Virus record (IMG/VR): IMGVR_UViG_3300048577_000133
Location: 1-64,000 of that record
Reading direction: 5' to 3' (one strand)
From: a virus
DNA length: 64,000 nt
Below, piece by piece: positions 5,238-46,444 of the stretch. The notes beneath the pieces are model-generated. The model was given only the letters and a program-made list of their open reading frames with translations. It was not told where the DNA came from and made no database searches. Numbering within the stretch: the stretch's first letter is position 1; the number at the start of each line of letters is the position of its first letter. Made by a program: the position numbers and the translations under genes.

Positions 5238-6533
5238 TTACAATAAATTTTCAAATGATTTCGAAATACGGGCATCAATATCCATGTAGGATGGGAACCC
5301 GTCAGTTGCAATCGATTTGCTCTTATCAACAATCAAACGACCATCTCGCTGAACAATAAAGAACCCAACATGTTTTGACACAAAAATTTCGTCAGTCTGG
5401 TTTTGTGGGTTGCGTCGTTTTTCAGTCATCATAGAACCGTAGTTTAATGCGTCCATTGCTTTGTTCGGATCAATCAACATAATTTGACCGGCTGGCATTG
5501 TAAAGATGTCATTAACCAATGTTGGAGGAACACCCAGGATTGTTCGAAAATCTACTTTTTGTGTTTGACCGGCAAACCCAGCGAATTGCTGAAGTTCAGA
5601 CAATTCAATGCCATCATCTTCCGAAGTAATTAACCGGGTACAATCCCTTTTCAAGCGGCTCATGCGACCAAACGATTTCCGAAGGTCTTTATATGTGAAC
5701 GACCCTGCTGTCTTTACACCAATCACCGGGGCAGATTGTGATCCGTCTGACTGTTCTCCATTAATAAGGATGTTGAACGCTTCAACGTCAGTGGCAATAG
5801 CCATATCAACACCAACTTCAGCTAATGCTTTGAAAAGCAAAGAAATTTTTGTGTTGGCCACCATTTCGTCAGTCATGGCAAAACCACAACCAATCTTGAA
5901 AGTTTCAACATTCTTTTGCCCAAATGTTACGGTACCAAAAGGAATACTTTCAGCTTCACCGATTCGGCGCGGAATCATCTCACCTTTTTTAATCAATGGA
6001 ACTACAGCTTTTGTATTTCCTACCAGGTTGTGAGTTGTACCAATCCAGTTAATGTAATTGATGGCAGCTTCATAATCCTGATAAATTGGAGCTAAAATAA
6101 GTTCTGGAATCAAAAAACGATAAGCCTCGTTGAAATCTTTGGTATTTGCAACAAACGAAGTATGATTATTCAACATGTCGGTCAAATTGTTTTTGTCCAA
6201 AACACCGGCATAACCTAATCGTTTTGCAATACTTCCAAGCGAATCTGTTGTAACATAAATACCAATTTGCGTTAAGTATTTTTGCAACGAAACACCATAG
6301 CGGTATTTAATCGCTTCAGAAAGAGAAATGTCACGACCTGGTATTTCAGCACCATTACTGTCACGTGCTGCTCCTTTACGAACGTCAACAACTTCACCCA
6401 CTAAAGAACCAAAATCTGATTGATAGTTGTCACGTACTTTTGTTGCAGAAAGCTCCCCTTGCTCATTTGCCATAACACTTTTATTGTGTTTTCGCAAAGA
6501 CTGCAATTCTTCAAAACTCAATTTTTCTGGCAT
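5238..6533 (-). CDS. Putative major capsid protein (431 aa)
   Basis: Size and position (scaffold/protease, then decoration, then this ORF), followed by a strong hairpin. No motif verified by eye. Confidence 0.6.
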   Translation of the reverse strand: MPEKLSFEELQSLRKHNKSVMANEQGELSATKVRDNYQSDFGSLVGEVVDVRKGAARDSNGAEIPGRDISLSEAIKYRYGVSLQKYLTQIGIYVTTDSLGSIAKRLGYAGVLDKNNLTDMLNNHTSFVANTKDFNEAYRFLIPELILAPIYQDYEAAINYINWIGTTHNLVGNTKAVVPLIKKGEMIPRRIGEAESIPFGTVTFGQKNVETFKIGCGFAMTDEMVANTKISLLFKALAEVGVDMAIATDVEAFNILINGEQSDGSQSAPVIGVKTAGSFTYKDLRKSFGRMSRLKRDCTRLITSEDDGIELSELQQFAGFAGQTQKVDFRTILGVPPTLVNDIFTMPAGQIMLIDPNKAMDALNYGSMMTEKRRNPQNQTDEIFVSKHVGFFIVQRDGRLIVDKSKSIATDGFPSYMDIDARISKSFENLL

Positions 6534-6566
6534 ATTTTGAAATTTTTAAAATTTAATAATTAAGGA

Positions 6567-6977
6567 TTAAGGATTTTTTTGATAAACACCATCAATAATC
6601 CCAACAAGGCATTCATTTGTAGCTGTAGCTCCTTTAATAACTACTGCGTTAACAAAATTGCCTGCTACTGCAAGTGTAAATTCTTGTTTGCCGTCAGCAT
6701 TAACAACGCCTGTTGCAACAACTTCTTTACCTGGCACAAGATCAACTTTTGCAATGCCATAAACTTCAGCGGCAATAAACGTGCGGATTGCCACACGTGC
6801 GCCGTCTGCGCCTCCAACCTCCACAATTCCAAAAGGCAATTGTGTACCGGCTGTTACTTTTGAAACTCTGCCATCAGCGTCTAGTTTTACATTCTGACCT
6901 TTCACTAAAGCACCGTTGGCAATACGACCTAAGTTAAGGCTATCGTGCTTTGCATTTCTTACAACTGTTTGACTCAT
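6567..6977 (-). CDS. Putative head decoration protein (DUF2190-like, 136 aa)
   Basis: Gly/Val/Ala-rich beta-type sequence between the scaffold and capsid genes. Strong GGAGG lies 8 nt upstream of the ATG. Confidence 0.5.
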   Translation of the reverse strand: MSQTVVRNAKHDSLNLGRIANGALVKGQNVKLDADGRVSKVTAGTQLPFGIVEVGGADGARVAIRTFIAAEVYGIAKVDLVPGKEVVATGVVNADGKQEFTLAVAGNFVNAVVIKGATATNECLVGIIDGVYQKNP

Positions 6978-6989
6978 AAAAATAACCTC

Positions 6990-8471
6990 CTATTTATTTT
7001 CGTGTAAATACTGGGCCATTGACGGAATTACTTGTTCAGTAGCTCCGCTGTTGCCTTCCGGCTCTGATTTGCGCATACTAATGTTTTTAGAACCGCACTT
7101 TTGGCAAGTTGCGCCAAACACTTCAAGAGACTTTCCACCAAACTGGTTAATGTAACTATTTGCCAATTCCAGGTTTGCTGTTTTGATACTTGATAACATT
7201 GCATTACTGATTTTATCGCCGGCAGAAAGTTTATACAATCGTTCAGCTTCAACGCGAGCTGCCGAAAGAGTTTGGTTTTGCTCTTTTGCAAAAGGAATTA
7301 TATTTTCAAGTCCTACCTCTGTTTCCAAAGTGGCAACATCTTCATGTTTGCAAATCTTTGCGTAATCAGCAAGCTGCGTATTGGCAACATCAAGACTTTT
7401 GCTTGCAGTGGATAAATTGGTGTTTGCTTCCGACAAATCGGTTTCCAATTTGGCATATGCTGTTGCTTCAACTACTTTTTGGGTAGGCGCAACTACTTGC
7501 AGATTTGCAATAAAATCTGCGGTTAATTCAGTTTCGGTTTTACCGAATTTTTCTGTAAGTAATTTGATTAAATTCATTTCTTTGTTTTTTCCGTTATCGC
7601 CTGTTTTTGAAAAATTTTGCTTATTAAAAGATACTTGTTTTACAGACTGTTCGCTATCAAAAACAAATAATCTTCCTTCTTTTTCGTAAATTGAAAACAA
7701 TGGGTCTTCTGTGGCTTTTGACATACTTACCACATTTGATTTTTCGATATTAAGCGGATTGCCTTCGCTATCCAAAATTTTAGCAAAAGGATCGGCACCT
7801 AACCAAACTAAAGAGGTTTCGTGACATTCAATAACATTAGTTACAACGCGACAAACCATTTTCCCGTCAACCATTTGTCCCAGATTGTCCCTAAACTCAT
7901 ACCAGTCGTATTCACCATTTTGTTTAAAATCGTGTGATGGCTCCCACTCAAATACTACTGTAATTGAAACAGATTGGATATGTGGCACCGGGAACGCGGC
8001 AAGTTTCCGGCAAATATCAGCGTGTAACTTTCCGTCAATCCATATTGGGCCTTCAATACCAGCCGGAATAAATTGCCCCGAATCATCGGTTCTGGAAGGA
8101 ACAAATTTTAAGTCGCCATTGGCCCCGACAATATTGTCAGTTTCAAATTCGTGATTAACCATTACCGGTTTGTTTGAAAGCAAACCAGCTACTTTTTTTA
8201 ACACCTTTTCATTTGAAAAGTCTGTTGCCTTCCAGGTACCGCCGCCTACAATTGTGGCCGAAATGTGACGAAAGTTGAACGGCAAGAAATCTTCAGGCTT
8301 TGGTATAGCATCTTCTATGTTCGAATTTACCTGCTTTTGCCTGTAATCCCTGTTTGCCCAAGAGTAGTTTCCTTCGCCTATTTGTTTTTTAAACGATTCG
8401 GCTTGTTTCTCATCAGGTACGCCAATAAATGCGCGTCCATTTGCAAAATGCAAAATTCCGGTTTGTTTCAT
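6990..8471 (-). CDS. Putative prohead protease / scaffolding protein (493 aa)
   Basis: Sits between the portal block and the capsid gene. Has a C-terminal coiled-coil region and a CQKCGS zinc-ribbon-like tail. Ends in TAG. Confidence 0.45.
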   Translation of the reverse strand: MKQTGILHFANGRAFIGVPDEKQAESFKKQIGEGNYSWANRDYRQKQVNSNIEDAIPKPEDFLPFNFRHISATIVGGGTWKATDFSNEKVLKKVAGLLSNKPVMVNHEFETDNIVGANGDLKFVPSRTDDSGQFIPAGIEGPIWIDGKLHADICRKLAAFPVPHIQSVSITVVFEWEPSHDFKQNGEYDWYEFRDNLGQMVDGKMVCRVVTNVIECHETSLVWLGADPFAKILDSEGNPLNIEKSNVVSMSKATEDPLFSIYEKEGRLFVFDSEQSVKQVSFNKQNFSKTGDNGKNKEMNLIKLLTEKFGKTETELTADFIANLQVVAPTQKVVEATAYAKLETDLSEANTNLSTASKSLDVANTQLADYAKICKHEDVATLETEVGLENIIPFAKEQNQTLSAARVEAERLYKLSAGDKISNAMLSSIKTANLELANSYINQFGGKSLEVFGATCQKCGSKNISMRKSEPEGNSGATEQVIPSMAQYLHENK

Positions 8472-8526
8472 TTTACTGATAATTGTTACTACTTAATGTA
8501 ACTAATAATCAGGGTTCAATGAATAA

Positions 8527-8560
8527 TAAAAAAAGCCGAAAACAATTTAATGTTTCGGCT
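8527..8560 (-). terminator. Rho-independent terminator
   Basis: Minus strand reads AGCCGAAACATTAAATTGTTTTCGGCT followed by TTTTTTTATTATT. Confidence 0.8.
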
Positions 8561-8585
8561 TACTAAATAAAGTATGTTGTAATTA

Positions 8586-9125
8586 TTAATCTGCTATTTC
8601 TCCAATATATATTCTTACATCATTATCTGATCTTCCAGGTAAGTAGTGCATAACTCCCCTTATTTCAGCAGGTATTTTGTACACCAGATTTGTTGTTATG
8701 CTTGTCAACGGATTTATTTGTTTCAAAGATGCTCCCCATCCTTCAAGCATTATAGTTTCTGTCTTGTCAAACTTATATTCTTTCCCATTATAATTAATAA
8801 ATACAGAACCATCAGTTAACATTCTGCTTTCAGTATCTGTATTTTTAAATGTTGTATTTACAATCAAATACCCCATTCCTTTCTCATGCGGTAAGTTTAC
8901 AAATTCATTTCCTGTATTTACAGAGCTAACAACTTTTACATCATTAACAGTAACATCAAAATAATTTGTGTGCAAAACCTGATTTATTCCAATTTGTACT
9001 TTCTCAGTCTTTTGTTTTTCTGTTTTTGAAAATGACCCTATAACCGTAAACAGTATTATTACCGATACTATTGCAATTAATAACTTCTTCCCAGTGCTCA
9101 TTTTCTTTTTAGGTTCTAATTCCAT
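8586..9125 (-). CDS. Membrane-anchored DUF4352-like protein (179 aa)
   Basis: N-terminal TM segment LLIAIVSVIILFTVIG followed by a beta-rich domain (GYLIVNTTFKNTDTES...). Terminator immediately downstream. Confidence 0.6.
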   Translation of the reverse strand: MELEPKKKMSTGKKLLIAIVSVIILFTVIGSFSKTEKQKTEKVQIGINQVLHTNYFDVTVNDVKVVSSVNTGNEFVNLPHEKGMGYLIVNTTFKNTDTESRMLTDGSVFINYNGKEYKFDKTETIMLEGWGASLKQINPLTSITTNLVYKIPAEIRGVMHYLPGRSDNDVRIYIGEIAD

Positions 9126-9165
9126 GACTTCAAGTTTTTTTTGTTAATATGCAAACATAAAAATT

Positions 9166-9624
9166 CTATTTTATATACCCAATTTCTTGAGCAAAATAGA
9201 ATAATCCATCATCATCAAAAATGTAATCAATTAACTCTTTCCGGATCATTCCTAAAACAGTGGGCACATCGTACACCGGGTAAATATTAAAAGCCCGTAT
9301 TACTTTTTCTGGAGTCAATTCTTTTCTTGTGCAATACGACTCCCAGAGGTATATTTCAGAAATAAAATCCAAAAGCTGTTTGGCATAAACCGACTTGCCA
9401 GATTGTGACAAGTCACCTTTTGTCACATCCGAATAAGCATCTTTAATGATCAACTTTGAAGATTTTGCCATTTCATCCCGGCACTGGTTTAAAAACACCT
9501 GGTTGCGCGTAAACTCTTTGGATACCTCTCGAATATCAAGCCCCAACTTGACACAAGAAAAAGTAAGCCCTATGCCAGTGCATAGAGCTGCCTTTAGAAA
9601 ACTTTTGTCTGAATCGGATAACAC
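9166..9624 (-). CDS. Hypothetical protein (152 aa)
   Basis: GTG start overlaps the upstream TAG (TAGTG). No motif recognised. Confidence 0.5.
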   Translation of the reverse strand: MLSDSDKSFLKAALCTGIGLTFSCVKLGLDIREVSKEFTRNQVFLNQCRDEMAKSSKLIIKDAYSDVTKGDLSQSGKSVYAKQLLDFISEIYLWESYCTRKELTPEKVIRAFNIYPVYDVPTVLGMIRKELIDYIFDDDGLFYFAQEIGYIK

Positions 9625-10235
9625 TAGCTGTTCGTTTTAATAAACTCTGTTATTCGTTCTGAAACGTTCTTTTTCTCCGGGTATAAACTTTTGATATGTT
9701 TCAGAAATTTGTGAAATGCTTTTTTCTCAGCCAGTGTGTTAAATTCGATCTTAAAGCTCAGTTCTGTCTTTGAAGTCGAACCGCTTTTATCTCTCTTCTT
9801 TTTATCATGCTTTTCGTCAATTGTTAATTCACTTTCTTCAAACCCGATTTCAAGCAATAAATTTTTATCAAAATCGCTGGTAAGAACGTCATGGTTCCAT
9901 TCCCCGCCCCCCTTATTGGCTATGATGTTTGCTTTTTCGCATTGCTCTGGTGTCCATTTTACCAACCGGTAACCAAAACGTTCGCCCTTGTACTCGATGT
10001 ACCCAAGTGCTAGTGTGCCCTGAACTGTTGGAGGATCGAACTCCTTTACAATCTCAATATTACAATTATTTAAATCAACTACCTTACTTCGCTGGTTGCC
10101 GGAAATAATTTCATTTGAATTTTGATCATGTACTACACATCCAAGATCACCTAATTCCTGCATCCAAATAGCCAGATCACTCATTTGTTTTTCGCTAATT
10201 TTCCGGGGGTTTTTGAAATACTCTTTTGCTTCCAT
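9624..10235 (-). CDS. ParB/Srx-fold nuclease-domain protein (203 aa)
   Basis: NPRKISEKQMSDLAIWMQELGDLGCVVHDQNSNEIISGNQR matches the ParB N-terminal-domain pattern (NPR...L...G...iv...iisGnqR). Confidence 0.6.
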   Translation of the reverse strand: MEAKEYFKNPRKISEKQMSDLAIWMQELGDLGCVVHDQNSNEIISGNQRSKVVDLNNCNIEIVKEFDPPTVQGTLALGYIEYKGERFGYRLVKWTPEQCEKANIIANKGGGEWNHDVLTSDFDKNLLLEIGFEESELTIDEKHDKKKRDKSGSTSKTELSFKIEFNTLAEKKAFHKFLKHIKSLYPEKKNVSERITEFIKTNS

Positions 10236-10445
10236 TTATATTTGTTTTAGTGTATATGTGTCTTTTATTAACTCTATCAGTGTTCCGTTTATTCCACTTC
10301 TTTTCCGGGCTTTCCCTTCACTAATTAATTGTTTCAAATCATTTACACACTCTTCGCCAAACATATATCTAAGTTCAACGCTGGCAAAAAAAGGCCATTT
10401 ATTAGCCTTATACTCTGCCTCCATATAATCAACAACCTTACTCAA
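10236..10445 (-). CDS. Hypothetical protein (69 aa)
   Basis: Coupled small ORF overlapping the portal stop. Confidence 0.5.
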   Translation of the reverse strand: MSKVVDYMEAEYKANKWPFFASVELRYMFGEECVNDLKQLISEGKARKRSGINGTLIELIKDTYTLKQI

Positions 10446-12807
10446 TGCTTGCTACTACTCTACCCCTACATTTAGGGTGATATGGTGACGTTGTAAAACC
10501 CATAGCCTGAAGTTCGCTATTGGTTTTTGTTTTAATTTGATCTAATGGATATGAAGTCAAGAACGGGCTTGTTATATTTAAGTTGGCCGGATCTGAATCG
10601 ACTTTTGTTTTGATCTTCTCAATGGCTGTCTTTACTTCGAAAACTTTACCATCCATCGATAAACAATACTGGCAAGTTAAGTTGTCGCCCATCTCGACAA
10701 TTTCATACTTTTCAATTTCAGCCTGATTCATGTACATTACATTCCCATCGTTTCGGATAGTCTGAACCGTTGTATCAATTATCCTGCTGATTTTCCAAGA
10801 TTCCATGTTCAAAACCTTCTCAAACTCTTTTCTGAAAGAATCCAGGTCTTTGCGGTTCTTTCCAATTGGCGTTTGACCCTTAATGTATTTTTCAGTAATG
10901 TATTTGTAAACCCGGTTTTTTGTATCATCATCGGTAATAAACTTACCTAGGTAAAATTTATCAAGCGAATTGTAGTAATCTATTGCTCTGTAATCAAGCA
11001 AGTCAAATTTAGCCTCCGGTGCTTTAAAGAAACTTCCTTTCGAAAACCCTTTATCTTCAGGGAAAATAGTAGTATCCTTCCGGCTATAATCAAATATTTC
11101 GGTTACATTTCGTTTGATCAGCGGCACAATGTCAACATTGAACCCATTTGAATAAGTTTCCAAAATCTTTGCGTAAACCTTTGCTTTAACAGTCTCAATA
11201 TTTTCTGAAGCATCCGATTTAAACAAGACGTTTGCCGCATCTGTCGCTGCTTTCTTATTGCTTTGTACAAATGCTTTTTCAACGTCAGCATAGTATTTGT
11301 TTGCCATTCGATCAATCTTCGCGCTTCCAAAATCCATCCTGATCGATTCGTTATGATTATGCCCGTCATTATACCGAAATACTGGAGTCTTTTTATTCAG
11401 ATAACTTTCATACCCTTCGATCATCCGGATCGCTGAATTTTTGGCCTGATCTTTTGTTTTTGTAGATGCAGGTACAGCCGGTTGTTTTGATTCAGGTAAA
11501 GCCGGTTTTTCATAGCCCAACTTCTGAGCTTTTGTTTGCTGGTCGATTACCCCCATAGTGTAAAGAGATTCAGCGTTTGCAATACGCTTACCTTCAGCAT
11601 CAGCCGCGGCCACTTCATCACTAATCATTGGTACTTCTGATTCTACACCTTTGATAAATTCAGGATCAAACCCATTTAATTGAGCAAACAACTTATAAAG
11701 TTTCAAAAAGAAAGAATCAACCAGGGCCTGATAATCCCGGATTTGATTTGTCATTTTTGCCAGTACTACTTTCCCAAAAGTTTCGGTCGTACTGAAATTC
11801 CTTCCCAACATATTCGGATCCTGTTTCAGCCCTGAGAATACCATCAAATCAATAATCTTCATCAACGTCTCAGAACTCTTTGCGTCCATTTTGCCGGTTT
11901 CAAGCTTTACTTCCTGAGCATCTTTATAACCAGCAATCACTCCTGTTGACAATGCGTTTTTTATCTGAGGATAAATATATTTATCAAGATATTCCTTTGA
12001 TCGTTTAATGTAATCAGTGTTTGTTTCTCCTTGCTCCTGTTCTGGAGGACTTACCGAAACTGAAAGAATTCCTAACATTCCAATTCGTTTCATAACTTCA
12101 GCAAAATTGTCTTTCATGCTGCTTTTAATAAGCACGTCTCGACAAGCAGATAAAAATGGTGGTGTTGGATATGGGCTTTCATGCAACCGTCTCCATGCGG
12201 CGTAATGATACGTCACCGGATTTAATGCAATTAGTCCTGCGGTTCCTTTCCCTGAGTAACTTCTTTGATAGGTTAAATATTGAATGCTTTCAGGATCATA
12301 CACAAAAACAATGTTCCGGGGCGAAACCCTAAAAACCTGGTGTATGTTATCAAGTTTTAAAGTAGGTACAATCTCAGCGCTTATAGCTCCAAAAATTACA
12401 GCCTGAGCAAGTAAATCAGATTTAAGCGATCGTATACCTTCCGAATTATTATACCAGGAATTTTGATTGTCAGTAATTAATTCATTTAAATTTTTTCGGA
12501 TTGATTCACTTACTGAATCAGAATAAATTATTTCATGCTTTGTATTTGAAAGCTGTACTAGATTGTCTAACGCATAGCTAACATCTTCATTATACGCCGC
12601 AAGATTGACAAGTGTATCAAACCATTCTATTGCAAAATCAGGAGGAATTGCACCAAGTTTTGAATGAAATTGAGTAGTTGCATCTTCGCTGACTCTTACC
12701 CCTCCCTGAATAGGCATAAACCCGCTTTTAATTTCACTCTTCAGGGTTTCAACCTCCTGCCTTAATTTTTTTATTTCTGTATTTTTTCCGAAACGCCAAA
12801 TTTTCAT
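10438..12807 (-). CDS. Portal-sized N-terminal region fused to a Mu F / SPP1 gp7-like minor head domain
   Basis: C-terminal CQYCLSMDGKVFE ... SPYHPKCRGRVV is the Mu F-family signature. The N-terminal roughly 450 aa is called portal by size and position only. Start moved to ATG 12807 because the track start at 12834 reads through promoter-like sequence. Confidence 0.65.
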   Translation of the reverse strand: MKIWRFGKNTEIKKLRQEVETLKSEIKSGFMPIQGGVRVSEDATTQFHSKLGAIPPDFAIEWFDTLVNLAAYNEDVSYALDNLVQLSNTKHEIIYSDSVSESIRKNLNELITDNQNSWYNNSEGIRSLKSDLLAQAVIFGAISAEIVPTLKLDNIHQVFRVSPRNIVFVYDPESIQYLTYQRSYSGKGTAGLIALNPVTYHYAAWRRLHESPYPTPPFLSACRDVLIKSSMKDNFAEVMKRIGMLGILSVSVSPPEQEQGETNTDYIKRSKEYLDKYIYPQIKNALSTGVIAGYKDAQEVKLETGKMDAKSSETLMKIIDLMVFSGLKQDPNMLGRNFSTTETFGKVVLAKMTNQIRDYQALVDSFFLKLYKLFAQLNGFDPEFIKGVESEVPMISDEVAAADAEGKRIANAESLYTMGVIDQQTKAQKLGYEKPALPESKQPAVPASTKTKDQAKNSAIRMIEGYESYLNKKTPVFRYNDGHNHNESIRMDFGSAKIDRMANKYYADVEKAFVQSNKKAATDAANVLFKSDASENIETVKAKVYAKILETYSNGFNVDIVPLIKRNVTEIFDYSRKDTTIFPEDKGFSKGSFFKAPEAKFDLLDYRAIDYYNSLDKFYLGKFITDDDTKNRVYKYITEKYIKGQTPIGKNRKDLDSFRKEFEKVLNMESWKISRIIDTTVQTIRNDGNVMYMNQAEIEKYEIVEMGDNLTCQYCLSMDGKVFEVKTAIEKIKTKVDSDPANLNITSPFLTSYPLDQIKTKTNSELQAMGFTTSPYHPKCRGRVVASIE

Positions 12808-12832
12808 AATTGCATGTTTGCATATAATATGC

Positions 12833-12866
12833 AAAAAAAAGCCTCACATTTTTGTAAGGCTTTTTT
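12833..12866 (-). terminator. Rho-independent (bidirectional-looking) terminator
   Basis: GCCTCACATTTTTGTAAGGC flanked by A8 on one side and T6 on the other. Confidence 0.75.
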
Positions 12867-13737: not shown

Positions 13738-13846
13738 TAATTTGGTACTTTGTTTGCCAAAAATTGAGGCTTTCGCCTCTTACCCGTTTGGATGAAACAA
13801 AGATATAAATAAATTCCAATATGGTGCAAGTGTTTTGTAATAAAAA

Positions 13847-14356
13847 TTAATCAGATTTTTCGTTAGATTCTGAAAATTCTTTTCCTGCAAAAAGTTCGGC
13901 AAGTCCCGATAATTGTTTTAGCCTTAGCACTTCGTCGGCATCCATGCCAATGTTTTTCATTATCCAAGCATCGCCCATCCCTGCTTTTGACAGTTCTGAA
14001 ACAATATTTACCATTAAATCAATATCATGCGATCCACGGGCCCGATTATGACGAATGGTAGAAGCCATACGGTTGCTGATGTCTTTTTCAATAACAACAA
14101 CTGGCATCAATCCGTTTTCTCGTTCGTAAATATCGCGGTGTTTAAGCATCACTGTATATCTGTGAAAACCGTCAACAATTTCATACTTATCGTCATCGGG
14201 AAGATGATAACAAACAATAGGCATGGTATAGCCATCTTCTTTAATTGACTGGTATAGTAATTTCATCTCAGGGGGTGCTACTGCATTTGGATTGTAGCTA
14301 TTGGCTTGTATTTTTTCGACAGGTATAGCCTGTACGTTATAAACTGGTGATGTCAT
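13847..14356 (-). CDS. IbrB-like ParB-domain protein (169 aa)
   Basis: IPVEKIQANSYNPNAV...LLYQSIKEDGYTMPIVCYH...YEIVDGFHRY is a ParB N-terminal-domain pattern. Start overlaps the PAPS-reductase-like gene. Confidence 0.7.
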   Translation of the reverse strand: MTSPVYNVQAIPVEKIQANSYNPNAVAPPEMKLLYQSIKEDGYTMPIVCYHLPDDDKYEIVDGFHRYTVMLKHRDIYERENGLMPVVVIEKDISNRMASTIRHNRARGSHDIDLMVNIVSELSKAGMGDAWIMKNIGMDADEVLRLKQLSGLAELFAGKEFSESNEKSD

Positions 14357-15636
14357 AATATTGATCTGTATTTTTCTAACATGTTATTTCGTTTCTCTAA
14401 TTCATATTTGGTAAGTCCAAATCCTAACGTCTTGCAAGCTGTATCATTTTTCATTATTGCTATGCACATGCGTTTGTATGTTGGTAAAAGATTTGGGTTC
14501 TTTATTTCAATTTCATCTAAGTAATCTTTAAAGCGAATTACCCTATAGTCTGTTGTATAATTACGATTGTTTTCTGGAGTACCCAAATCTTCAAATTCGA
14601 TCTGCGTAGAATCAAGTTCGTTGGCAACTTCAGACGGCAATGCTCCACCTTTTTCAAGCCAATATTTAAATGATACCTCTAATTTTCGAATGTAATTTTC
14701 TCGTGTTTCTTTAGGTAATGTATCAAGTAAAAAATACATGTATTGTTTCCATGTAAAATGTGCAGGTTTTTTTATGTTATTCCAACCCATAGCTGTAGTT
14801 CCGCCGTAAAGACCGGAAAAATTAACTCCGTTTACGCGGCCAATCAGTTTTCCCCAATTATTAGGGTCTATTACCTTATACAATTTCAGGCTTTCGGTTG
14901 CGCAATCGTTAAACGGACTTGCAACACGCATGGAGTTTAGTTTAACGCCTGCGCGATACATCAAATCGTACAACCGGTTATAATCAAAACGGAACCGATA
15001 ATTTGCTATCCAAATATCATCAACTTGCCAATCATAAATTGGATAGGCGTTGATAAGATTTGATGTTAAAACAGAGGTGTAATTATTTGATTTATATTCA
15101 TTACGGTCGTCAAATTTATTTACCGCTTTCCAACGGTGCAGGCTTTCCTGGGTGCGAATTCCGATCAAAAAGCAGGTTTTCTTTTCTTTTGATATTACTT
15201 TGCCAAATTTGATATTAAAGTCGTAATCGCTGATTTCGTAATCAAAATTAAACGGAAAATTATCTTCATTGATGCAATTTACAGGAAGATCGCGGCACCA
15301 TATTTCTTTATCTTCCTTTCTCCACGGTTGCCAGTAGTTTTGAAACATGCTTGTAGCACATTGGGCTTTTATAGGAAGACAAACCCAATATTTTGAAACT
15401 TCACTGGAAAGTGATTCAAACGTCCGGGTAACGTAATTAGTTGTTTCCTGATATTGTGCCTCGTAATCCATGTGGTAAACTCCAACCTTATGCAGTTGGT
15501 TAGTTTTACGGGCATAGTTTAACGCAAGATTCATCATTACTCCACTGTCTTTTCCTCCCGAAAAAGATATGATTATCTGCTCAAATTCATTGAATAAAAA
15601 AGCAATTCGCTTAATAGTTGCTTCGTAAACATTCAT
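14353..15636 (-). CDS. IbrA-like PAPS-reductase / PP-loop family protein (427 aa)
   Basis: PP-loop SFSGGKDSGV near the N-terminus, long C-terminal extension, and pairing with a ParB-like gene as in IbrA/IbrB. Confidence 0.75.
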   Translation of the reverse strand: MNVYEATIKRIAFLFNEFEQIIISFSGGKDSGVMMNLALNYARKTNQLHKVGVYHMDYEAQYQETTNYVTRTFESLSSEVSKYWVCLPIKAQCATSMFQNYWQPWRKEDKEIWCRDLPVNCINEDNFPFNFDYEISDYDFNIKFGKVISKEKKTCFLIGIRTQESLHRWKAVNKFDDRNEYKSNNYTSVLTSNLINAYPIYDWQVDDIWIANYRFRFDYNRLYDLMYRAGVKLNSMRVASPFNDCATESLKLYKVIDPNNWGKLIGRVNGVNFSGLYGGTTAMGWNNIKKPAHFTWKQYMYFLLDTLPKETRENYIRKLEVSFKYWLEKGGALPSEVANELDSTQIEFEDLGTPENNRNYTTDYRVIRFKDYLDEIEIKNPNLLPTYKRMCIAIMKNDTACKTLGFGLTKYELEKRNNMLEKYRSIL

Positions 15637-15839
15637 TAGTTAATCATTAAATCTTTATCGCTTTCTTTATCTGGATAATATTTACCTTCTGAAGTAACGC
15701 AAATTACTTCTTTGTTGTCAATTATTGCAACAATTGGAAATTTCTTGCTATTTCTGTCAAATAAAAGAACCTTTACTGGTTTACCTTTTCTGGTAAAAAT
15801 TTCAGCACCTTGTTTTGCTTTTTCAATATCAAATTGCAT
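15636..15839 (-). CDS. Hypothetical protein (67 aa)
   Basis: Start moved to ATG 15839 (MQFDIEKAK). The track N-terminus MHYICKINT is a translated promoter motif. Confidence 0.5.
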   Translation of the reverse strand: MQFDIEKAKQGAEIFTRKGKPVKVLLFDRNSKKFPIVAIIDNKEVICVTSEGKYYPDKESDKDLMIN

Positions 15840-15862
15840 TGTATTAATTTTACAAATATAAT

Positions 15863-15887
15863 GCAAATATATATATTGTATTTGTAA
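15863..15887 (-). promoter_or_regulatory. Extended early/middle promoter motif copy
   Basis: Plus strand gcaaatatatatattgtatttgtaa, which on the minus strand ends in a TAnnTTTG -7 box. Confidence 0.65.
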
Positions 15888-15909
15888 AAACGATATTCAA
15901 ATTGAATTT

Positions 15910-17559
15910 TTATAACAATTCAATGTATTTTTTTAATTTGGTTTTGTTCTTCATCAATTCTTTTATTTCGTCAGTTAAATTACCTTTTCGCCGCAAATTT
16001 CCCATAATCCGAGTATCAATTCCTGAATGAGTAAGTAAATCAATGACCAACATTGGTTTTGTTTGTCCGGGTCGGTCAATACGTCCAACCGACTGCTTTC
16101 GATTTAAATAACTAAAAGAATTAGAATAGAAAACAACTTGGCTACTTACTTCCTGAAGACCATTCAATCCGGTACCACCGCTTTGCATTGTCGCAACAAA
16201 GTAAAGGCGTTTTCTTTCGCGGAATAATTGTAATTCGTTGTCGCGATCTTTAGGGTTACGGCCTGTAAACACGGCGCAATTTTCGCGTCCTAAATAATTA
16301 ATTATTGTTTCGATTTCAAAAATGTATTTACAAAAAAACACGGTTGGTTGTGTAAAATCAAGATTTTTAAGCATTAATGGTTTGTTTGATTCCAAGATTG
16401 TTATTTTCCCATCGCGGGTTTTGTGGTACCCTGATGTGATTTGCTGCATATGTGTAAACACTTCAAAAATATCGATTGCTCTCATTTCGTCACGCTCAAT
16501 AATTGTCAATAACCGCTCCTTTTCTGCCTGATAGTATTCTTCCTGTTCGTCAGTAAGATAACAATACTTTGCCGTTTCTGTTTTAGCCGGAAGGTCTAAA
16601 ACTTCTTCTTTCGATACTTGATAAGTATAAGGTTCGAGCAATCCCATTAGTTGATCAAGATTCTTGTAACCAATTATTTCGTCGCCATTACGACCACCCA
16701 TAATTAGGTATTTTTCTTCAAACTTCAGCCAGTTACGAACTCCTATAATCAATTCCGAAAGCATTGCATACTGCATGTACAAGTTATGCACATTTTCGGT
16801 TACTGGCGTTCCTGTCATCACTACCTTGTAACTGCTTTTATCGCACACCATTTTGATCCGCTTGCTACGTTTTGCTATCGGAGTTTTCACCATGTGGCTT
16901 TCGTCAACAATAATCTGAGTTTCATTATCTGCATATTCCAAAGCTTCAAAAACGGTTTTGTCGCTTGAACTCATGCTTTCAATGCCGATCAACTTCCAAT
17001 AGATTCCGGGAGTATTGCACCATAAGTGTATTTGATCGCGGAAATTCTTTTTTGTCGATACGGGAAGGAATACCAATACCTTTTTGATTTGCCCAGCTTC
17101 GTAACGGCTCTGCACAAGGTCAATAACTATCTTACTTTTCATTGTTCCGGTATCGGCATACAAGGCTGATACCTTCATCGAACACATAAACCGGAGCGCA
17201 TCAACCTGGTGCTTTTTGCTTCGAGAATCATACACAGGAATAACGTCATCCTTCAGTCGTTCGTGAAGCGGCACTTTTTTGCGCTCCAGTTCACAATTAT
17301 TGATCAACTCGTGAAATTGACGTTCTATTTCGGCCTTGTAGTTTGCCGCTTGTTGATTATCGTAATAATTTGAATTACGGTCGTTCTCTACCCGGCAAAA
17401 CACCTGAAGGCGATCGTTAACCACCTCGAACCACGCAGCTGTTTTAATTCCTTTTCCATTTTTACCGTATGGGATATACAGCCGCCTGATGCCGTTTTTT
17501 TCTCCGGTAAACAAGCGGCTATATTTAATGCGTGATTGTATGGTTTCAAGGGTATTCAT
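15910..17559 (-). CDS. SNF2-family helicase-like protein with atypical motif I (549 aa)
   Basis: IVDESH (motif II), MTGTPVTEN (III), SGGTGLNGLQ (V) and QSVGRIDRPGQ (VI) are present. Motif I reads YADTGTMKSK instead of GxGKT. Confidence 0.75.
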   Translation of the reverse strand: MNTLETIQSRIKYSRLFTGEKNGIRRLYIPYGKNGKGIKTAAWFEVVNDRLQVFCRVENDRNSNYYDNQQAANYKAEIERQFHELINNCELERKKVPLHERLKDDVIPVYDSRSKKHQVDALRFMCSMKVSALYADTGTMKSKIVIDLVQSRYEAGQIKKVLVFLPVSTKKNFRDQIHLWCNTPGIYWKLIGIESMSSSDKTVFEALEYADNETQIIVDESHMVKTPIAKRSKRIKMVCDKSSYKVVMTGTPVTENVHNLYMQYAMLSELIIGVRNWLKFEEKYLIMGGRNGDEIIGYKNLDQLMGLLEPYTYQVSKEEVLDLPAKTETAKYCYLTDEQEEYYQAEKERLLTIIERDEMRAIDIFEVFTHMQQITSGYHKTRDGKITILESNKPLMLKNLDFTQPTVFFCKYIFEIETIINYLGRENCAVFTGRNPKDRDNELQLFRERKRLYFVATMQSGGTGLNGLQEVSSQVVFYSNSFSYLNRKQSVGRIDRPGQTKPMLVIDLLTHSGIDTRIMGNLRRKGNLTDEIKELMKNKTKLKKYIELL

Positions 17560-18047
17560 AATATAAATGATTTAGCCTCAGAATTGTTATGCACTTTGTA
17601 TATAACATAGTCTGTTTTTTTAATATATTCAATAGCCTGAATATATGGAAGAAGTTCTATTGGATGGTACCAACCATTTGGTCTTTTCTCACTAACCCAG
17701 ACGTCTGGGTTAGTGACGAACAAAAATATTCCGTGAAAATACCCATGCCACCTGATTAATTTAGGTGGATTTGATTCTATTTCACATTCTTGTTCAACAG
17801 TAGGAATACAACCATCAATTGCGATCAATTCTAACTCAGGAAATTCTTCCCCTTTCCGCATTTTGTCCCAAAAGTCAGAATCAATTCTAACTTTTTTGTG
17901 GCAATACGAACAATACGCTTTTTTTATGTGTCCTTTTTGTGACACTTCAATTATTACGTGCCCCTTTGGGTCATCACCAGGAGCCATTGTGTGATAACAA
18001 GGTTTGTAATACCTTGTTTTAAATGTTAAAGTTTTCATTTTTATCAA
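17556..18047 (-). CDS. Hypothetical Cys/His-containing protein (163 aa)
   Basis: Coupled ORF carrying CYH...CSYCH. Confidence 0.5.
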   Translation of the reverse strand: MIKMKTLTFKTRYYKPCYHTMAPGDDPKGHVIIEVSQKGHIKKAYCSYCHKKVRIDSDFWDKMRKGEEFPELELIAIDGCIPTVEQECEIESNPPKLIRWHGYFHGIFLFVTNPDVWVSEKRPNGWYHPIELLPYIQAIEYIKKTDYVIYKVHNNSEAKSFIL

Positions 18048-18613
18048 TTTAATTCATTTTCTAATTCTACGATACGAGCTTTCAATGCTTCAATTTCGGC
18101 CTTAATTTCTTCAACTGGCCGTTTCTTTTTCGAGTATTTTACTTCGCACCAGCCTTCTTCGATTGCCTTTTTTACTTCAGGTAATTCGAGTGATGGTATC
18201 GGAAAATTCTTGATTTCAAAGGTGGCATTGCTTATTGTTGTGTTCCAGTTTTTTACAGAACCTCCAGAATTGTATTTGCCTGATATAAAAACAATATCAT
18301 CGCCAAGCCGTGCACCCGAATCGCGTCCAAAAGCACGGGCTATTGACCTGCCAAAAAGCACAACGGGTCCATGTGCTTCAAAATCAGAAAAATCGGTTAT
18401 TAGCAGAGTGCATGTTTCAAAAGGTGTTTCTCCTGTTGTTCCAAAAAACTGTATCATTGCTTCTCGAACGTAGTCGAGAATAGAATCATCAAACCACCAA
18501 GCCCCGCCCTTAAAAGTACCGCGAAAATTGCGACACTTATTAACAAACCTTTCGTTGTAAGGAGTTACAACTTTTACTTTGTCGTCTATAATAGTTAATT
18601 GTATTGCTTGCAT
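18044..18613 (-). CDS. Hypothetical protein with C-terminal coiled coil (189 aa)
   Basis: Coupled ORF; no family recognised. Confidence 0.5.
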   Translation of the reverse strand: MQAIQLTIIDDKVKVVTPYNERFVNKCRNFRGTFKGGAWWFDDSILDYVREAMIQFFGTTGETPFETCTLLITDFSDFEAHGPVVLFGRSIARAFGRDSGARLGDDIVFISGKYNSGGSVKNWNTTISNATFEIKNFPIPSLELPEVKKAIEEGWCEVKYSKKKRPVEEIKAEIEALKARIVELENELN

Positions 18614-18656
18614 AATTATTTTTTCCTTTTTATTGATGTATACTTCAGTTGCTTTG

Positions 18657-18893
18657 TTACTTTATTCGCATAAAATCAACGCAATCTTGATGCGATTCGA
18701 AGGGAATAATACCTTTTGCATCACCTGAAGGCGAATAAATAGCTTTTCCTGAATTATAGAAAGCAACAAATTCGGGACCTCCATAAGCATTTATACCAAA
18801 AACACCGTATTCAGTTGGTTCAAACTTGAACGCATTTGAAACGTAATCCAATGAAACAGGATCAAGTGAGTGAGCTAAATTTACTTTTTTCAT
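18657..18893 (-). CDS. Hypothetical protein (78 aa)
   Basis: First ORF downstream of the promoter motif at 18927. Confidence 0.5.
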   Translation of the reverse strand: MKKVNLAHSLDPVSLDYVSNAFKFEPTEYGVFGINAYGGPEFVAFYNSGKAIYSPSGDAKGIIPFESHQDCVDFMRIK

Positions 18894-18926
18894 CTTGTTT
18901 TTGTTTTAATATTTGTACTTTGTTCT

Positions 18927-18951
18927 GCAAATATAAATACTATATTTGTAA
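18927..18951 (-). promoter_or_regulatory. Extended early/middle promoter motif copy
   Basis: gcaaatataaatactatatttgtaa. Confidence 0.7.
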
Positions 18952-19407: not shown

Positions 19408-19977
19408 TTAATCTTTGTACTCCCATTTAAAGCCCCCGGCAGACTTTCTTTTTCCTAAGCATACCTTCTGAATAGAACTAAAGTCAACACCTGTTTCCCT
19501 AAATGCTTCAGTTGTAGAGCCGTAATTTGCAATCAATTCGCCGTTAATCGTGAGTTGATTTACAGATTTACTATTCCAATTATACGATCCTGTTTTGTCA
19601 CTATTTATTGTAGTCCGATCAAACTTTAGTTCGTTTGTTAAATGATCAATGTTTTCCTGATGCGTACACCATTCAAGATTATCTGAACAACAATTCAATT
19701 TATTACCGTCTTTGTGATTACCTTCTGGTAAGTTATTTTGATTTTTCTTAAAAGCAATCAAAACAAGTCGGTGTATCAACATGTTTTTTCTGCATCCATT
19801 GAGTAAGTTAACAAATAAATAACCAGAATTATTTACATTTGGTATTAGTACTTTACCTTTAAAAAATCTGCGTTTACCATCCTTTGAAATAATAACCCGG
19901 TCAAGTGATCTAACTCTTCCTAAATTACTGACTTGATAAAATTTTTCGTATCCTGCTATATCTTTCCAAATTTCCAT
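19408..19977 (-). CDS. HNH homing endonuclease with NUMOD4 N-terminus
   Basis: MEIWKDIAGYEKFYQVSNLGRVRSL (NUMOD4) and GNHKDGNKLNCCSDNLEWCTHQEN (HNH_3). Confidence 0.85.
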   Translation of the reverse strand: MEIWKDIAGYEKFYQVSNLGRVRSLDRVIISKDGKRRFFKGKVLIPNVNNSGYLFVNLLNGCRKNMLIHRLVLIAFKKNQNNLPEGNHKDGNKLNCCSDNLEWCTHQENIDHLTNELKFDRTTINSDKTGSYNWNSKSVNQLTINGELIANYGSTTEAFRETGVDFSSIQKVCLGKRKSAGGFKWEYKD

Positions 19978-20109: not shown

Positions 20110-20298
20110 TTATTTCTGACTTTCAACGCTATCACTTTCAACGCTTTTATGTTCATTTATGCCATTATTGCAGCTTTTTTTGCTAAAAATAGCCTCAAAA
20201 ATCCACATAACGCATAGACAAAAAAAAATAAATAAGAACCCATATCCGAACAACCTCGACCCGGTTTGATGATCTAAAAAATTAAAAAGTGTTTCCAT
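20110..20298 (-). CDS. Small membrane protein (62 aa)
   Basis: TM segment FGYGFLFIFFCLCVMWIF. Confidence 0.4.
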   Translation of the reverse strand: METLFNFLDHQTGSRLFGYGFLFIFFCLCVMWIFEAIFSKKSCNNGINEHKSVESDSVESQK

Positions 20299-20597
20299 TA
20301 CAAGTATAAAAATTTGTGTATTTCTGCCATTCTCATTTTAAACTTGTGTTTCCGGATCAATGCCTCTTTACTGATTTGTTCATCATGAGCATCATCATGA
20401 CACACCCGGCAAAGGCCAATCAGGTTTTCAATGTAGTCTTTCTCATCTGAACCTCCCATACCTTTGTTATCGATGTGATGTACATCAATAATGATTCTTT
20501 TCTCGCAATACTCGCACTTCCTGGGTTCGTACTCCCCCGTTTCCGGGCTATATGCAATGTCAAAGAAATCAAGATATATTTTAGTGTGCCGCTCCAT
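20298..20597 (-). CDS. HNH endonuclease-like protein (99 aa)
   Basis: CEYC...DVHHIDNKG...CRVCHDDAH. Confidence 0.7.
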   Translation of the reverse strand: MERHTKIYLDFFDIAYSPETGEYEPRKCEYCEKRIIIDVHHIDNKGMGGSDEKDYIENLIGLCRVCHDDAHDEQISKEALIRKHKFKMRMAEIHKFLYL

Positions 20598-20969
20598 TTA
20601 CACCGTCTCAAAATAGAACTTTACTCCTTTTCCTGTTTCTACAACAAGTTCGTACTTGCTGCAAAATTTATACTGTGTAGAGTAATTTTTAAGAGAATTG
20701 AGCATAGTTTCAATATTCTGTCTAAATGCCTCAATTGACATTGAGTTTTTAATGATATTACAACTTGGACAACTTGGATTGTAATTTTCTAAAATTTCTC
20801 GTTCTGGATGTTCACACTTCGATTTATCTTTTAAATCACGAACTATTGGTTCAATATGGTCAACGTGCCAACCTTTTTTAAGTTCACACCCACAATAAGC
20901 ACACTTTCCACCATACTTTTCAAAAACAGTGATCCTGTCTCTTTTTGTAATTCTACTGTTTTGCTCCAT
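20598..20969 (-). CDS. HNH endonuclease (123 aa)
   Basis: CAYCGCEL...HVDHIEP...NPSCPSCNIIKN. Confidence 0.75.
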   Translation of the reverse strand: MEQNSRITKRDRITVFEKYGGKCAYCGCELKKGWHVDHIEPIVRDLKDKSKCEHPEREILENYNPSCPSCNIIKNSMSIEAFRQNIETMLNSLKNYSTQYKFCSKYELVVETGKGVKFYFETV

Positions 20970-25003: not shown

Positions 25004-25942
25004 TTACTTTGTCACTCGTTGATAGTCAAATATAATAACACGTTCTGGATTCTTTACCTCAGTAGGAGAACCCTTTCTATTACGAATCGAAAACAACAAT
25101 TTAAAAAAATCATTTGAAGGGTATTTTGTACAAAGCATTTCAATTTCTTCATCAGTAAATTTAAATTCCTTTTTCAAAATAATTCTCATTCGTTCCTGAT
25201 CTTCAGAGCTGTTAACTGGAGGAATTTCTACAACTTCATTTTGTTCTGCTTCAACAATCGATACAATCATGAATTTAACCGAAACAATATTTCGGCCCAC
25301 CTTTATAGGCTGATAGTCTATTTTGATTCCAGTCTTTTCATTTATCGTTTGTTTTGATGGTTCCAAAACACGCTTTTTAAAGTCATTGAATTCTGAATAT
25401 TTCCCTGGGTGAATCATCATTCTTGAACGAAGATCCTCAATGCTTAAAACAATAGTTTTTACCCGTTTATTCTTGATCTGACAAATTAAATCCCAAATTT
25501 CATGTACATATACGCTTTGAAATATGGAACTGCTTAAAAGCTGTTTAGTGTATTGTTTGCCATGAAGTTTGACAAAATGATTTTTTGCCATGTTGGTAAG
25601 GTAAAACCGAACACCCATGTTGTTGTGTAGAAAAACAGTCTCTCCTATCAAGCTGTCAATACTCAAACCTTCGCTGGCAATGTCAACAACCTCAATAGAT
25701 TTCATTGTTCGAAATACCTGCCTGAATTGTTCAAAATTGGTCACTGTTATACCCATAAGCTCCGATATTTCCCGAAGCTGAAAATCTATAAAATCAATAT
25801 CACTATTCAGCTTAATCTTTGTCAGGATAACATTCAAAACGTTTCGTTGGGCCGCTGTCAAATGCTTTGGACTATTTATATAATCGTTACTTTTCGCAAT
25901 GTAACGTTTTGGTTTTGGTGTGTCTAGTGTTTGTGCTTCCAT
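25004..25942 (-). CDS. Rep_3-family plasmid replication initiator
   Basis: YIAKSNDYINSPKHLTAAQRNVLNVILTKI and YSEFNDFKKRVLEPSKQTINEKTGIKIDYQPIKVGRNIVSVKF match the Rep_3 (PF01051) pattern. Iterons lie upstream. Start taken at ATG 25942. Confidence 0.85.
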   Translation of the reverse strand: MEAQTLDTPKPKRYIAKSNDYINSPKHLTAAQRNVLNVILTKIKLNSDIDFIDFQLREISELMGITVTNFEQFRQVFRTMKSIEVVDIASEGLSIDSLIGETVFLHNNMGVRFYLTNMAKNHFVKLHGKQYTKQLLSSSIFQSVYVHEIWDLICQIKNKRVKTIVLSIEDLRSRMMIHPGKYSEFNDFKKRVLEPSKQTINEKTGIKIDYQPIKVGRNIVSVKFMIVSIVEAEQNEVVEIPPVNSSEDQERMRIILKKEFKFTDEEIEMLCTKYPSNDFFKLLFSIRNRKGSPTEVKNPERVIIFDYQRVTK

Positions 25943-25996
25943 GAGTGTAATTTTAACAAATACATTTCTAATAATCAATTGTATTTTATTAACATG

Positions 25997-26024
25997 CAAC
26001 AAATATGCAATTACAATTTTGTGA
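25997..26024 (-). promoter_or_regulatory. Degenerate copy of the promoter motif upstream of rep
   Basis: caacaaatatgcaattacaattttgtga. Confidence 0.4.
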
Positions 26025-46332: not shown

Positions 46333-46367
46333 ATTTTCCGGTTTTAGTGTAAATTTTATATTTGAAT

Positions 46368-46444
46368 ATATGTATAACATATACTGCAAAAGTGGAATAC
46401 ACGGCTAAAAGTGGAAAATATTTCCGCATTTAAGCCGCATTTAA
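46368..46444. repeat. Palindrome plus two pairs of direct repeats upstream of the ParB-like gene
   Basis: ATATGT-ATA-ACATAT (46368-46382); AAAAGTGGAA at 46388 and 46407; CCGCATTTAA at 46424 and 46435. Confidence 0.6.

Follow-up and report, generated by a model that had tools for sequence, protein, structure and literature searches.

We analysed a 64,000-nucleotide stretch of viral DNA (positions 1 to 64,000 of IMG/VR virus record IMGVR_UViG_3300048577_000133; hereafter, the window) and found that it carries a conserved phage cassette, in which a gene for an SNF2-family ATPase, preceded in part of the loci by a gene for a 189-amino-acid (aa) protein, is followed by a variable small gene and by the genes of an IbrA-like PP-loop enzyme and an IbrB-like ParB-domain protein. 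Phages of five or more bacterial phyla carry the SNF2-IbrA-IbrB trio. The IbrA/IbrB (IbrAB) pair received its name two decades ago, and many phage annotations list it; its arrangement with SNF2 appears to be undescribed. The literature searched contained neither a mention of ParB, PAPS reductase and SNF2 proteins together in the sense of such a cassette nor a mechanistic study of IbrAB, DUF3440 or ybdNM. An initial annotation of the region, made without database searches, had proposed a candidate DNA-modification or anti-restriction island of seven genes. Its gene assignments were confirmed and the co-occurrence it relied on was found; its functional label is still something that we infer.

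The linkage was surveyed from both ends. On the SNF2 side, 79 genomic and 10 viral loci were fetched, and linkage was counted only where downstream sequence exists. At SNF2 identities of at least 45% (about 30 genomic and viral loci), IbrA and IbrB lie downstream in the same orientation, 0 to 2 kb away, with the sole exception of locus L032, where nuclease and lysis genes are found instead. A Thiocystis prophage, whose SNF2 is 33% identical and which has genes for a primase, a terminase and an anti-repressor nearby, shows the same order, as does a Victivallaceae contig (29%). IbrAB was absent from the surveyed loci whose SNF2 is at most 26% identical. On the IbrA side, 80 IMG/VR loci with IbrA of at least 49% identity were compared: IbrB is present in all 80, and an SNF2 open reading frame (ORF) stands beside IbrA in 67. 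The SNF2 gene of these loci is usually a short form (∼400 aa) that overlaps the IbrA start. Upstream sequence is missing for 4 of the 13 loci that lack SNF2. The initial annotation had set co-occurrence beyond this genome as the test of its proposal, and the result is strongly positive from both the SNF2 and the IbrA sides.

The trio is present in isolated phages as well, where public labels for its SNF2 member are 'hypothetical protein' or 'DNA helicase'. A 411-aa 'hypothetical protein' encoded upstream of IbrA in Streptococcus phage CHPC877 (CHPC877_0027; L093, 4776-6011) is an SNF2 protein (7e-55), and so is its 389-aa counterpart in Lactobacillus phage phiAQ113 (BN107_000038; L184, 2318-3487; 2.5e-46). 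Fusobacterium phage phiFN37 carries the trio with a helicase gene downstream of IbrB. As a separate observation, a tandem duplication of the order IbrA, IbrB, IbrB', IbrA' was seen in the viral contigs L169 and L173 (∼6950-11020 in both) and L177 (∼5290-9360).

In a rough neighbour-joining tree all 91 linked SNF2 proteins fell within one clade of 98 leaves. Its long-form clade contains 29 linked and 3 unlinked proteins (two contig-truncated loci and L032), its short-form clade 62 linked and no unlinked ones, and a few replication-type helicases branch between the two groups. Identities of IbrA and IbrB to the window proteins vary together (r = 0.65); the corresponding values for SNF2 are r = –0.04 against IbrA and r = –0.24 against IbrB. 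The IbrAB pair is thus swapped as a unit and yet retains its SNF2 neighbour, which argues for selection on the SNF2-IbrAB combination. Moreover, phiFN37 shares an IbrA 73% identical and an IbrB 81% identical with the window, and otherwise almost nothing (weak matches to SNF2, a DUF4942 protein and SSB), which points to a recent horizontal transfer of the pair across phyla. Two further ParB-like genes lie near IbrAB in phiFN37 (L001; 11168-12453 and 14571-15059). One of them is directly upstream of a gene for a queuine tRNA-ribosyltransferase (DpdA-like), with a queuosine-precursor transporter two genes on; this is another pairing of a ParB-like protein with a DNA modifier.

The position of the cassette varies among genomes. 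Streptococcus and Lactobacillus phages and a Bergeyella prophage have it preceded by the lysis genes and followed by the early genes; several other loci have it next to a portal or terminase gene. Its end is just upstream of packaging/head genes in both the window and L099. In mycobacteriophage Gaia, IbrAB is inside the early region. Cassettes were found in integrated prophages and also in phages of such groups as Moineauvirus, which we take to be lytic. Carriage by lytic-group phages and prophages alike fits a function that serves the phage.

The SNF2-like assignment made initially was borne out by Pfam domains (SNF2-rel_dom PF00176, 1.1e-17; Helicase_C PF00271, 2.2e-5) and by a profile of 42 homologues, which matched the structures of Sulfolobus SNF2/Rad54 (1z63, 2.5e-34) and yeast Snf2 (1.8e-23); in PHROGs the protein belongs to phrog_62 (DNA helicase, 7.3e-80). 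Its N-terminal region of ∼115 aa is lineage-specific. Motif I reads ADTGTMKS: in its Walker A variant GTMKS, the second Gly of the canonical sequence GxGK[ST] is replaced by Met, and Lys and Ser are retained. Motifs II-VI (DESH, TGTP, GGTGLN and QSVGRIDRPGQ) are all present. The initial annotation had read these motifs correctly, but its term 'degenerate' for the P-loop overstates the case. Among the 120 closest homologues the residue before the P-loop Lys is G (91 proteins), M (25), Q (3) or D (1). The 28 M/Q variants diverge to 56% identity with DESH and TGTP invariant; motif V is GGTGLN in 27 of them and GGTGIN in one, and the listed variants keep the QSxGRxDRxGQ pattern of motif VI. Hence, the G-to-M change looks more like a lineage variant that is tolerated while purifying selection persists than like the mark of a decayed ATPase. 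We also considered a dead ATPase outright and regard it as unlikely, because the Lys, the Ser/Thr and motifs II-VI are kept across these variants.

The window encodes a second SNF2 protein of 702 aa with a canonical GKT loop (phrog_62, 2.7e-90), located in a replication module together with a Sak4-like annealing protein and a DnaD-like initiator. The two SNF2 proteins are only 22% identical. As the second one already covers replication, the IbrAB-linked copy is a dedicated partner of the pair and the motor of the cassette.

The IbrA-like protein combines a PAPS_reduct domain (PF01507, 5.7e-14, residues 20-228) with DUF3440 (PF11922, 4.2e-83, residues 230-414) and belongs to phrog_2302 (PAPS reductase, 7.8e-97). 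Its pairing with a ParB-domain gene had been likened to IbrA/IbrB at the outset, and domain architecture and homology agree: the protein is 76% identical to the 'Co-activator of prophage gene expression IbrA' of Flavobacterium columnare (P0279) and 30.7% identical, over 96% of its length, to IbrA of Escherichia phage PhiR5_2. Conservation was assessed in 38 divergent homologues, down to 28% identity. The predicted SGGKDS PP-loop is present at residues 26-31 and invariant in this set, with S26, G28, K29, D30 and S31 conserved in at least 90% of the sequences. Further conserved residues are D57 and E59; R161, E164, S165 and R168; and D202, W203, D207 and W209, of which the R..ES..R and D.W motifs are of the PAPS-reductase type. 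An AlphaFold model of the N-terminal half resembles FMN (flavin mononucleotide) adenylyltransferase, PAPS/APS reductases and CysD (E ∼1e-4 over ∼230 columns), with TilS, TtuA, NcsA and LarE among lower-ranked neighbours. What these relatives have in common is that they act at the alpha-phosphate of ATP or on intermediates that carry an adenylyl group. No listed structural match reaches the DUF3440 half at a usable root-mean-square deviation; residues 241-286 are the low-confidence part of the model. The search for a solved structure of IbrA found none (best E 0.06).

The IbrB-like protein matches ParB_N (Pfam, 2.7e-8) and phrog_2159 (ParB-like, 3.6e-79). Its conserved segments in 37 homologues are N-YNPN, DGxHR and NRxxGxH, all ParB/sulfiredoxin (Srx) signatures, and a C-terminal GM..E..RLKQ segment. 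Against structures, only generic ParB/Noc N-domains were matched, and a weak match to the SerK serine kinase was obtained. An HTH_ParB domain is absent from IbrB and present in the 523-aa ParB of the window (Pfam). A role of IbrB as the partition ParB of a phage-plasmid was considered and rejected: a full ParB with HTH_ParB and a ParA are encoded elsewhere in the window.

Three small partner proteins had been left unassigned, and only one of them, the 189-aa protein, proved to be a conserved companion of the cassette. It belongs to phrog_18108 (1.3e-23), and in 21 loci its gene immediately precedes that of SNF2. The protein has 198 homologues in the database searched, with no Pfam domain. Its AlphaFold model (predicted local distance difference test, 90.6) has a C-terminal coiled coil. 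The model matches no known fold in the PDB (best E 0.017, template-modelling score 0.17), and the viral models that it matches significantly are those of two uncharacterised proteins only. A profile comparison found no similarity between the 189-aa protein and the SNF2 N-terminus. The 78-aa and 163-aa proteins have no family match in Pfam, PHROGs, NCBIfam or PADLOC. Homologues of the former (44% identity) stand upstream of the cassette in only three other loci (L007, L018 and L031). The latter is a Cys-containing, lineage-specific protein without homologues in the loci compared by BLASTP beyond the window; its gene is called as 143 aa on two other contigs with an identical SNF2.

The slot between SNF2 and IbrA is filled differently from locus to locus. 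The small gene of the window, whose 67-aa length equals the source's gene call on an identical contig, encodes a protein with a weak match to PF26890 (Phage_HP1_YO09). The TTG start of its 76-aa version falls within the promoter motif described below. The same 68-aa family occupies the slot in five loci (the window, L004, L005, L023 and L088). Thirteen other loci have a GNAT-like gene there, of 128-141 aa except in L034 (236 aa). The one of L029 passes Pfam thresholds (Acetyltransf_1); its similarity to the rest ranges from 1e-6 to 1e-63. Proteins of ∼216, 194 and 263 aa are found in a further 4-5 loci, one with a sub-threshold N6_N4 methylase match: the N6_N4-methylase-like gene is that of L007, with BLAST-linked relatives in L009, L010 and L018. 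In seven loci the slot is empty.

All seven ORFs proposed for the window were confirmed at their positions on the minus strand (Table 1). Two operons driven by a shared promoter motif had been proposed, and a 26-nucleotide motif, TTACAAATAYARTATWTATATTTGCA, indeed precedes both the 78-aa gene and the small ORF, with five exact minus-strand copies in the window against 0.00 expected. The two operons thus stand, but not their back-to-back layout, as both lie in tandem on one strand. A looser form, TTACAAA-N9-TATATTTG, gave 22 matches versus 1.07 expected. Its minus-strand sites precede the Dcm methylase gene, replication genes and other early operons, and no structural operon. Since the motif stands before both operons of the cassette and before the Dcm and replication operons, the cassette belongs to an early/middle promoter class. 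The 3' end of the motif agrees with the Bacteroidetes –7 box, which we take to be TAnnTTTG. The TTACAAA-N9-TATATTTG motif is partly palindromic, and it may for that reason also serve as a regulator-binding site. A sigma-70 promoter scan gave 21 sites versus 22.7 expected. Terminator-like sites in the region are no commoner than in shuffled sequences, and a repeat search found no parS-like array and no repeats except the promoter motif. Of the ATGA-type overlaps ascribed to the genes, those at IbrA/IbrB (4 nucleotides) and at the 163-aa/SNF2 junction were recovered; the junction of the small ORF with IbrA is instead TAATG, a 1-nucleotide overlap.

Table 1. Features of the cassette and of its surroundings in the window
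Feature	Coordinates	Strand	Basis or remark
78-aa gene	18657-18893	-	ORF; first of seven co-directional genes
189-aa gene, phrog_18108	18044-18613	-	ORF; second gene
163-aa gene	17556-18047	-	ORF; third gene; 160 aa probable, ATG at 18038
SNF2-family ATPase gene, 549 aa	15910-17559	-	ORF, Pfam, PHROGs
Small ORF	15636-15866 (76 aa, TTG start) or 15636-15839 (67 aa, ATG at 15839)	-	
IbrA-like PP-loop enzyme gene, 427 aa	14353-15636	-	PAPS_reduct + DUF3440
IbrB-like ParB/Srx-fold gene, 169 aa	13847-14356	-	ParB_N
Promoter/operator motif copy	18926-18951	-	exact TTACAAATAYARTATWTATATTTGCA, before 78-aa gene
Promoter/operator motif copy	15862-15887	-	exact TTACAAATAYARTATWTATATTTGCA, between SNF2 stop (15910) and ATG 15839
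TTACAAA-N9-TATATTTG sites	15864, 18928, 19382, 23518, 28507, 33236, 36681, 44243, 47715, 52262, 54697	-	looser form of the motif
Terminator-like hairpin closing the IbrA-IbrB operon	13766-13779	-	GAGGCGAAAGCCTC then AATTTTTGGC; pattern match only
Second SNF2 gene, 702 aa	52300-54408	-	phrog_62
Sak4-like annealing protein gene	50685-51941	-	
DnaD-like initiator gene	48461-49528	-	
203-aa ParB-fold gene	9624-10235	-	phrog_498, phrog_620
Portal (portal-MuF) gene	10438-12834	-	
HNH endonuclease genes (three)	19408-19977, 20298-20597, 20598-20969	-	
Dcm-type cytosine methylase gene, 583 aa	21721-23472	-	
Rep3-type replication initiator gene	25004-26002	-	
ParA gene	26784-27554	-	
DUF4942 protein gene, 528 aa	30751-32337	-	PHROG matches of methyltransferase families
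Large terminase gene	36731-38383	-	
Full-length ParB gene	44818-46389	-	ParB_N + HTH_ParB

The long genes of the window all have the same orientation. A portal-MuF fusion, a protease and the major head protein are encoded just downstream of IbrB, and a helix-turn-helix (HTH) regulator gene follows IbrB; HNH, Dcm and portal genes are the other neighbours. Genes for the large terminase, baseplate and tail fibre lie elsewhere in the window. The large terminase gene is separated from the portal gene by ∼24 kb of early, partition and modification genes, the SNF2-IbrA-IbrB cassette among them. The three HNH endonuclease genes stand in a row and adjoin the gene for the Dcm-type cytosine methylase. 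The 203-aa ParB-fold gene directly follows the portal-MuF gene and has no Pfam match; it brings the ParB-fold genes of the window to four in total. ParA, a Rep3-type initiator and a full-length ParB together suggest that this phage can be maintained as a plasmid, and is possibly a phage-plasmid. The 5-kb region had no nucleotide match among deposited phages, and no close isolate was found (portal identity to known phages at most 30%). Homologues of the IbrAB-linked SNF2 protein are from Bacteroidota.

What might the cassette do? We tentatively favour, at somewhat less than even confidence, an ATP-dependent covalent modification of phage DNA by IbrA, with IbrB as nucleotide-binding partner and SNF2 as motor. 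The SNF2 motor would translocate along double-stranded phage DNA, and IbrB, with its nucleotide-binding ParB/sulfiredoxin fold, would load or position the complex there. IbrA would then spend ATP on adenylylating a base carbonyl or a phosphate of the DNA, and a second group could be installed at the adenylylated site. In relatives, the GNAT acyltransferase or the methylase-like gene of the cassette may supply or vary the installed group. The outcome would be a covalent mark that shields phage DNA from host nucleases. DNA as the substrate, the joint action of the three proteins and an anti-restriction benefit are what we infer here, because IbrAB is linked to a translocase of double-stranded DNA, because DpdB/DpdA and DndB offer precedents, because GNAT- and methylase-like genes recur in the cassette and because it shares a promoter class with Dcm and replication genes. 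As for the precedents, ParB-fold partners are present in two DNA-modifying systems, DpdB with DpdA, and DndB in Dnd with its PAPS-reductase-like enzyme DndC (PMC12839542). The catalytic signatures of IbrA, IbrB and SNF2, conserved as described above, also speak for the proposal.

A more far-reaching version of this proposal is that the cassette is an unrecognised phage DNA hypermodification machine, in which the motor carries the adenylylating PP-loop enzyme and the swappable accessory gene sets the group. Its chemistry would be distinct from phosphorothioation, methylation, deazaguanine and hydroxymethyl-pyrimidine derivatives, and the 'gene activation' ascribed to IbrAB would be a side effect of DNA marking. 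We consider this version doubtful.

Several observations weigh against DNA modification. No modified base or backbone in any IbrAB-carrying phage is reported in the literature searched. To our knowledge, the only experimental phenotype of IbrAB is the activation of eib genes, reportedly described by Sandt et al. in 2002 for prophage eib genes of E. coli ECOR-9. Many IbrAB pairs have no adjacent SNF2, among them an inspected chromosomal pair of E. coli, that of mycobacteriophage Gaia and that of Pseudoalteromonas phage XCL1123. SNF2 is therefore an add-on of one large subfamily and not essential to the core activity of the pair. Moreover, distant relatives of the IbrAB-linked SNF2 occur in plain replication modules. 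As to chemistry, no Cys is invariant among the 38 IbrA homologues (best Cys columns, 71%), and the match of IbrA to the DndC model TIGR03183 covers residues 147-210 only, with 29.8 bits versus a cut-off of 290.4. Finally, no Dnd, BREX or Dpd partners were found among the seven proteins with PADLOC, or in the rest of the window as partly scanned with PHROGs and Pfam.

The recorded eib phenotype could also be taken at face value, with IbrA/IbrB and SNF2 switching on or de-silencing phage genes. Under transcription control of this kind IbrB would bind DNA and spread on it and SNF2 would remodel RNA polymerase or nucleoid proteins; RapA is a bacterial SNF2 protein that acts on RNA polymerase. The end of the cassette just upstream of the packaging/head genes in the window and in L099, an early/middle promoter class as required of a late-gene activator and the HTH regulator gene after IbrB would suit this role. 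However, the strictly conserved ATP-pyrophosphatase site would be superfluous for a pure regulator, the position of the cassette is not constant among phages, and IbrB lacks the HTH domain of sequence-specific ParB regulators. On balance, we think transcription control unlikely. An accessory role in replication, recombination or packaging would have SNF2 remodel forks or concatemers and IbrB nick or mark DNA, with no chemical modification. The nearest SNF2 proteins without IbrAB are indeed encoded in primase/helicase/polymerase modules of Acinetobacter and Pseudomonas phages and branch next to the IbrAB-linked clades in the rough tree; the promoter motif is common to the cassette and the replication operons, and the cassette adjoins portal or terminase genes in several loci. 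We nonetheless hold such a role to be decidedly unlikely: it leaves no part for the PP-loop enzyme, the window already has a complete replication set with its own SNF2, Sak4, DnaD-like protein and SSB, and IbrAB pairs stand alone in bacterial chromosomes.

IbrAB might also counter host defences by acting on something other than DNA, IbrA modifying tRNA or a nucleotide messenger and IbrB being a kinase-like ParB/Srx enzyme. TilS, TtuA and NcsA are PP-loop enzymes that act on tRNA, and they are, with LarE, among the structural neighbours of IbrA. Some small-molecule kinases have a ParB/Srx fold, in line with the weak SerK match of IbrB, and the SNF2-less pairs imply that a DNA motor is dispensable for the core activity. 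The tight, shuffling-resistant linkage to a translocase of double-stranded DNA in this subfamily makes a target of this kind very unlikely, and so does the fact that where known enzymes of phage-defence contexts have ParB-fold partners, these partners act on DNA. Most improbable, in our view, is a prophage-encoded defence or exclusion system, by which the trio would turn on foreign DNA that enters the cell, attacking or marking it to the benefit of the lysogen. Cassettes are carried by groups that we take to be strictly lytic (Moineauvirus), although many are in prophages. Their promoter class is that of lytic early genes, no PADLOC model covers the cassette and no nuclease or other effector was recognised in it. 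Such a system would find parallels in the SNF2 and PAPS-reductase-like proteins of DISARM, Dpd, Zorya, BREX type 4 and Dnd (PADLOC matches), and in a 2026 preprint, which lists a PAPS reductase in a candidate defence cluster linked to a nucleoid protein, and proteins with Arc and ParBc domains as additions in a second cluster.

IbrAB-type pairs are very common. The IbrA family comprises 293 clusters at 50% identity (E ≤ 1e-30) and at least 6452 at 90% identity (E ≤ 1e-10), and pairs are found in 223 deposited phage genomes and in about one-third of complete E. coli genomes (1930 of 5426). We know of no biochemical function for any of them. That a large subfamily is locked to a dedicated SNF2 protein, in many cases along with a GNAT- or methylase-like gene, makes DNA the substrate to look at, and carriers of the trio include culturable dairy and gut phages. 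A new DNA mark, if found, would be an addition to the catalogue of phage anti-restriction chemistry and to DNA-labelling tools. If no mark is found, a transcription activator would be next in line.

Among known systems, the closest is E. coli IbrA/IbrB (island of ECOR-9; YbdN/YbdM in K-12), in which a PP-loop protein with PAPS_reduct and DUF3440 is likewise followed by an overlapping gene for a ParB_N protein. The co-directional arrangement is the same in the E. coli, Gaia, Streptococcus phage and Lactobacillus phage loci. The inspected E. coli pairs differ from the cassette in standing alone, with no SNF2, 189-aa or filler gene. In K-12, the ybdN/ybdM pair is a silent operon repressed by YbdO (PMC9068703). 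Dnd resembles the cassette in placing a ParB/Srx-fold protein beside a PAPS-reductase-like PP-loop enzyme together with an ATPase, DndD. However, the ATPase of the cassette is SNF2 and not SMC-like, and IbrA carries DUF3440 and no conserved Cys. Matches of IbrA to DndC are weak (PADLOC, 9.6e-9; TIGR03183, 2.8e-7), and none of DndA/IscS, DndD and DndE was found among the seven proteins (PADLOC). Because there is no invariant Cys and IbrA scores so far under the DndC cut-off, Dnd-type sulfur chemistry is unlikely. As further Dnd or BREX components were not seen either, the cassette does not amount to phosphorothioation in its currently known form.

Dpd offers a different parallel: a ParB-like ATPase, DpdB, aids the DNA-modifying enzyme, and an SNF2-type helicase, DpdE, is part of the system (PMC12839542). 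The match of the cassette SNF2 to DpdE (PADLOC, 1.6e-15) is to the generic helicase core only, with 19.4 bits in NCBIfam versus a cut-off of 500. Neither DpdA/TGT nor a preQ0 pathway was found in the cassette, and no TGT-like match in the flanking genes scanned. BREX type 4 combines the PAPS-reductase-like BrxP with an SF2 helicase and is thought to mark DNA (PMC12839542), whereas the cassette is phage-borne and phage-serving. The BrxHI match of SNF2 is weak (2.9e-6, PADLOC) and limited to the C-terminal lobe of the helicase; PglZ, BrxC, BrxA and BrxL were absent from the seven proteins (PADLOC) and from the flanking genes scanned. Replication-module SNF2 helicases, such as the second SNF2 of the window and those of Acinetobacter and Pseudomonas phages, belong to the same family (phrog_62) but have canonical GxGKT loops and lie beside primase, Sak4 or polymerase genes. 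Unlike the ParB of ParABS, which needs HTH_ParB and ParA, IbrB has ParB_N only. Overall, its domain content and gene order place the window cassette in the IbrAB family, apart from Dnd, BREX type 4, Dpd and ParABS.

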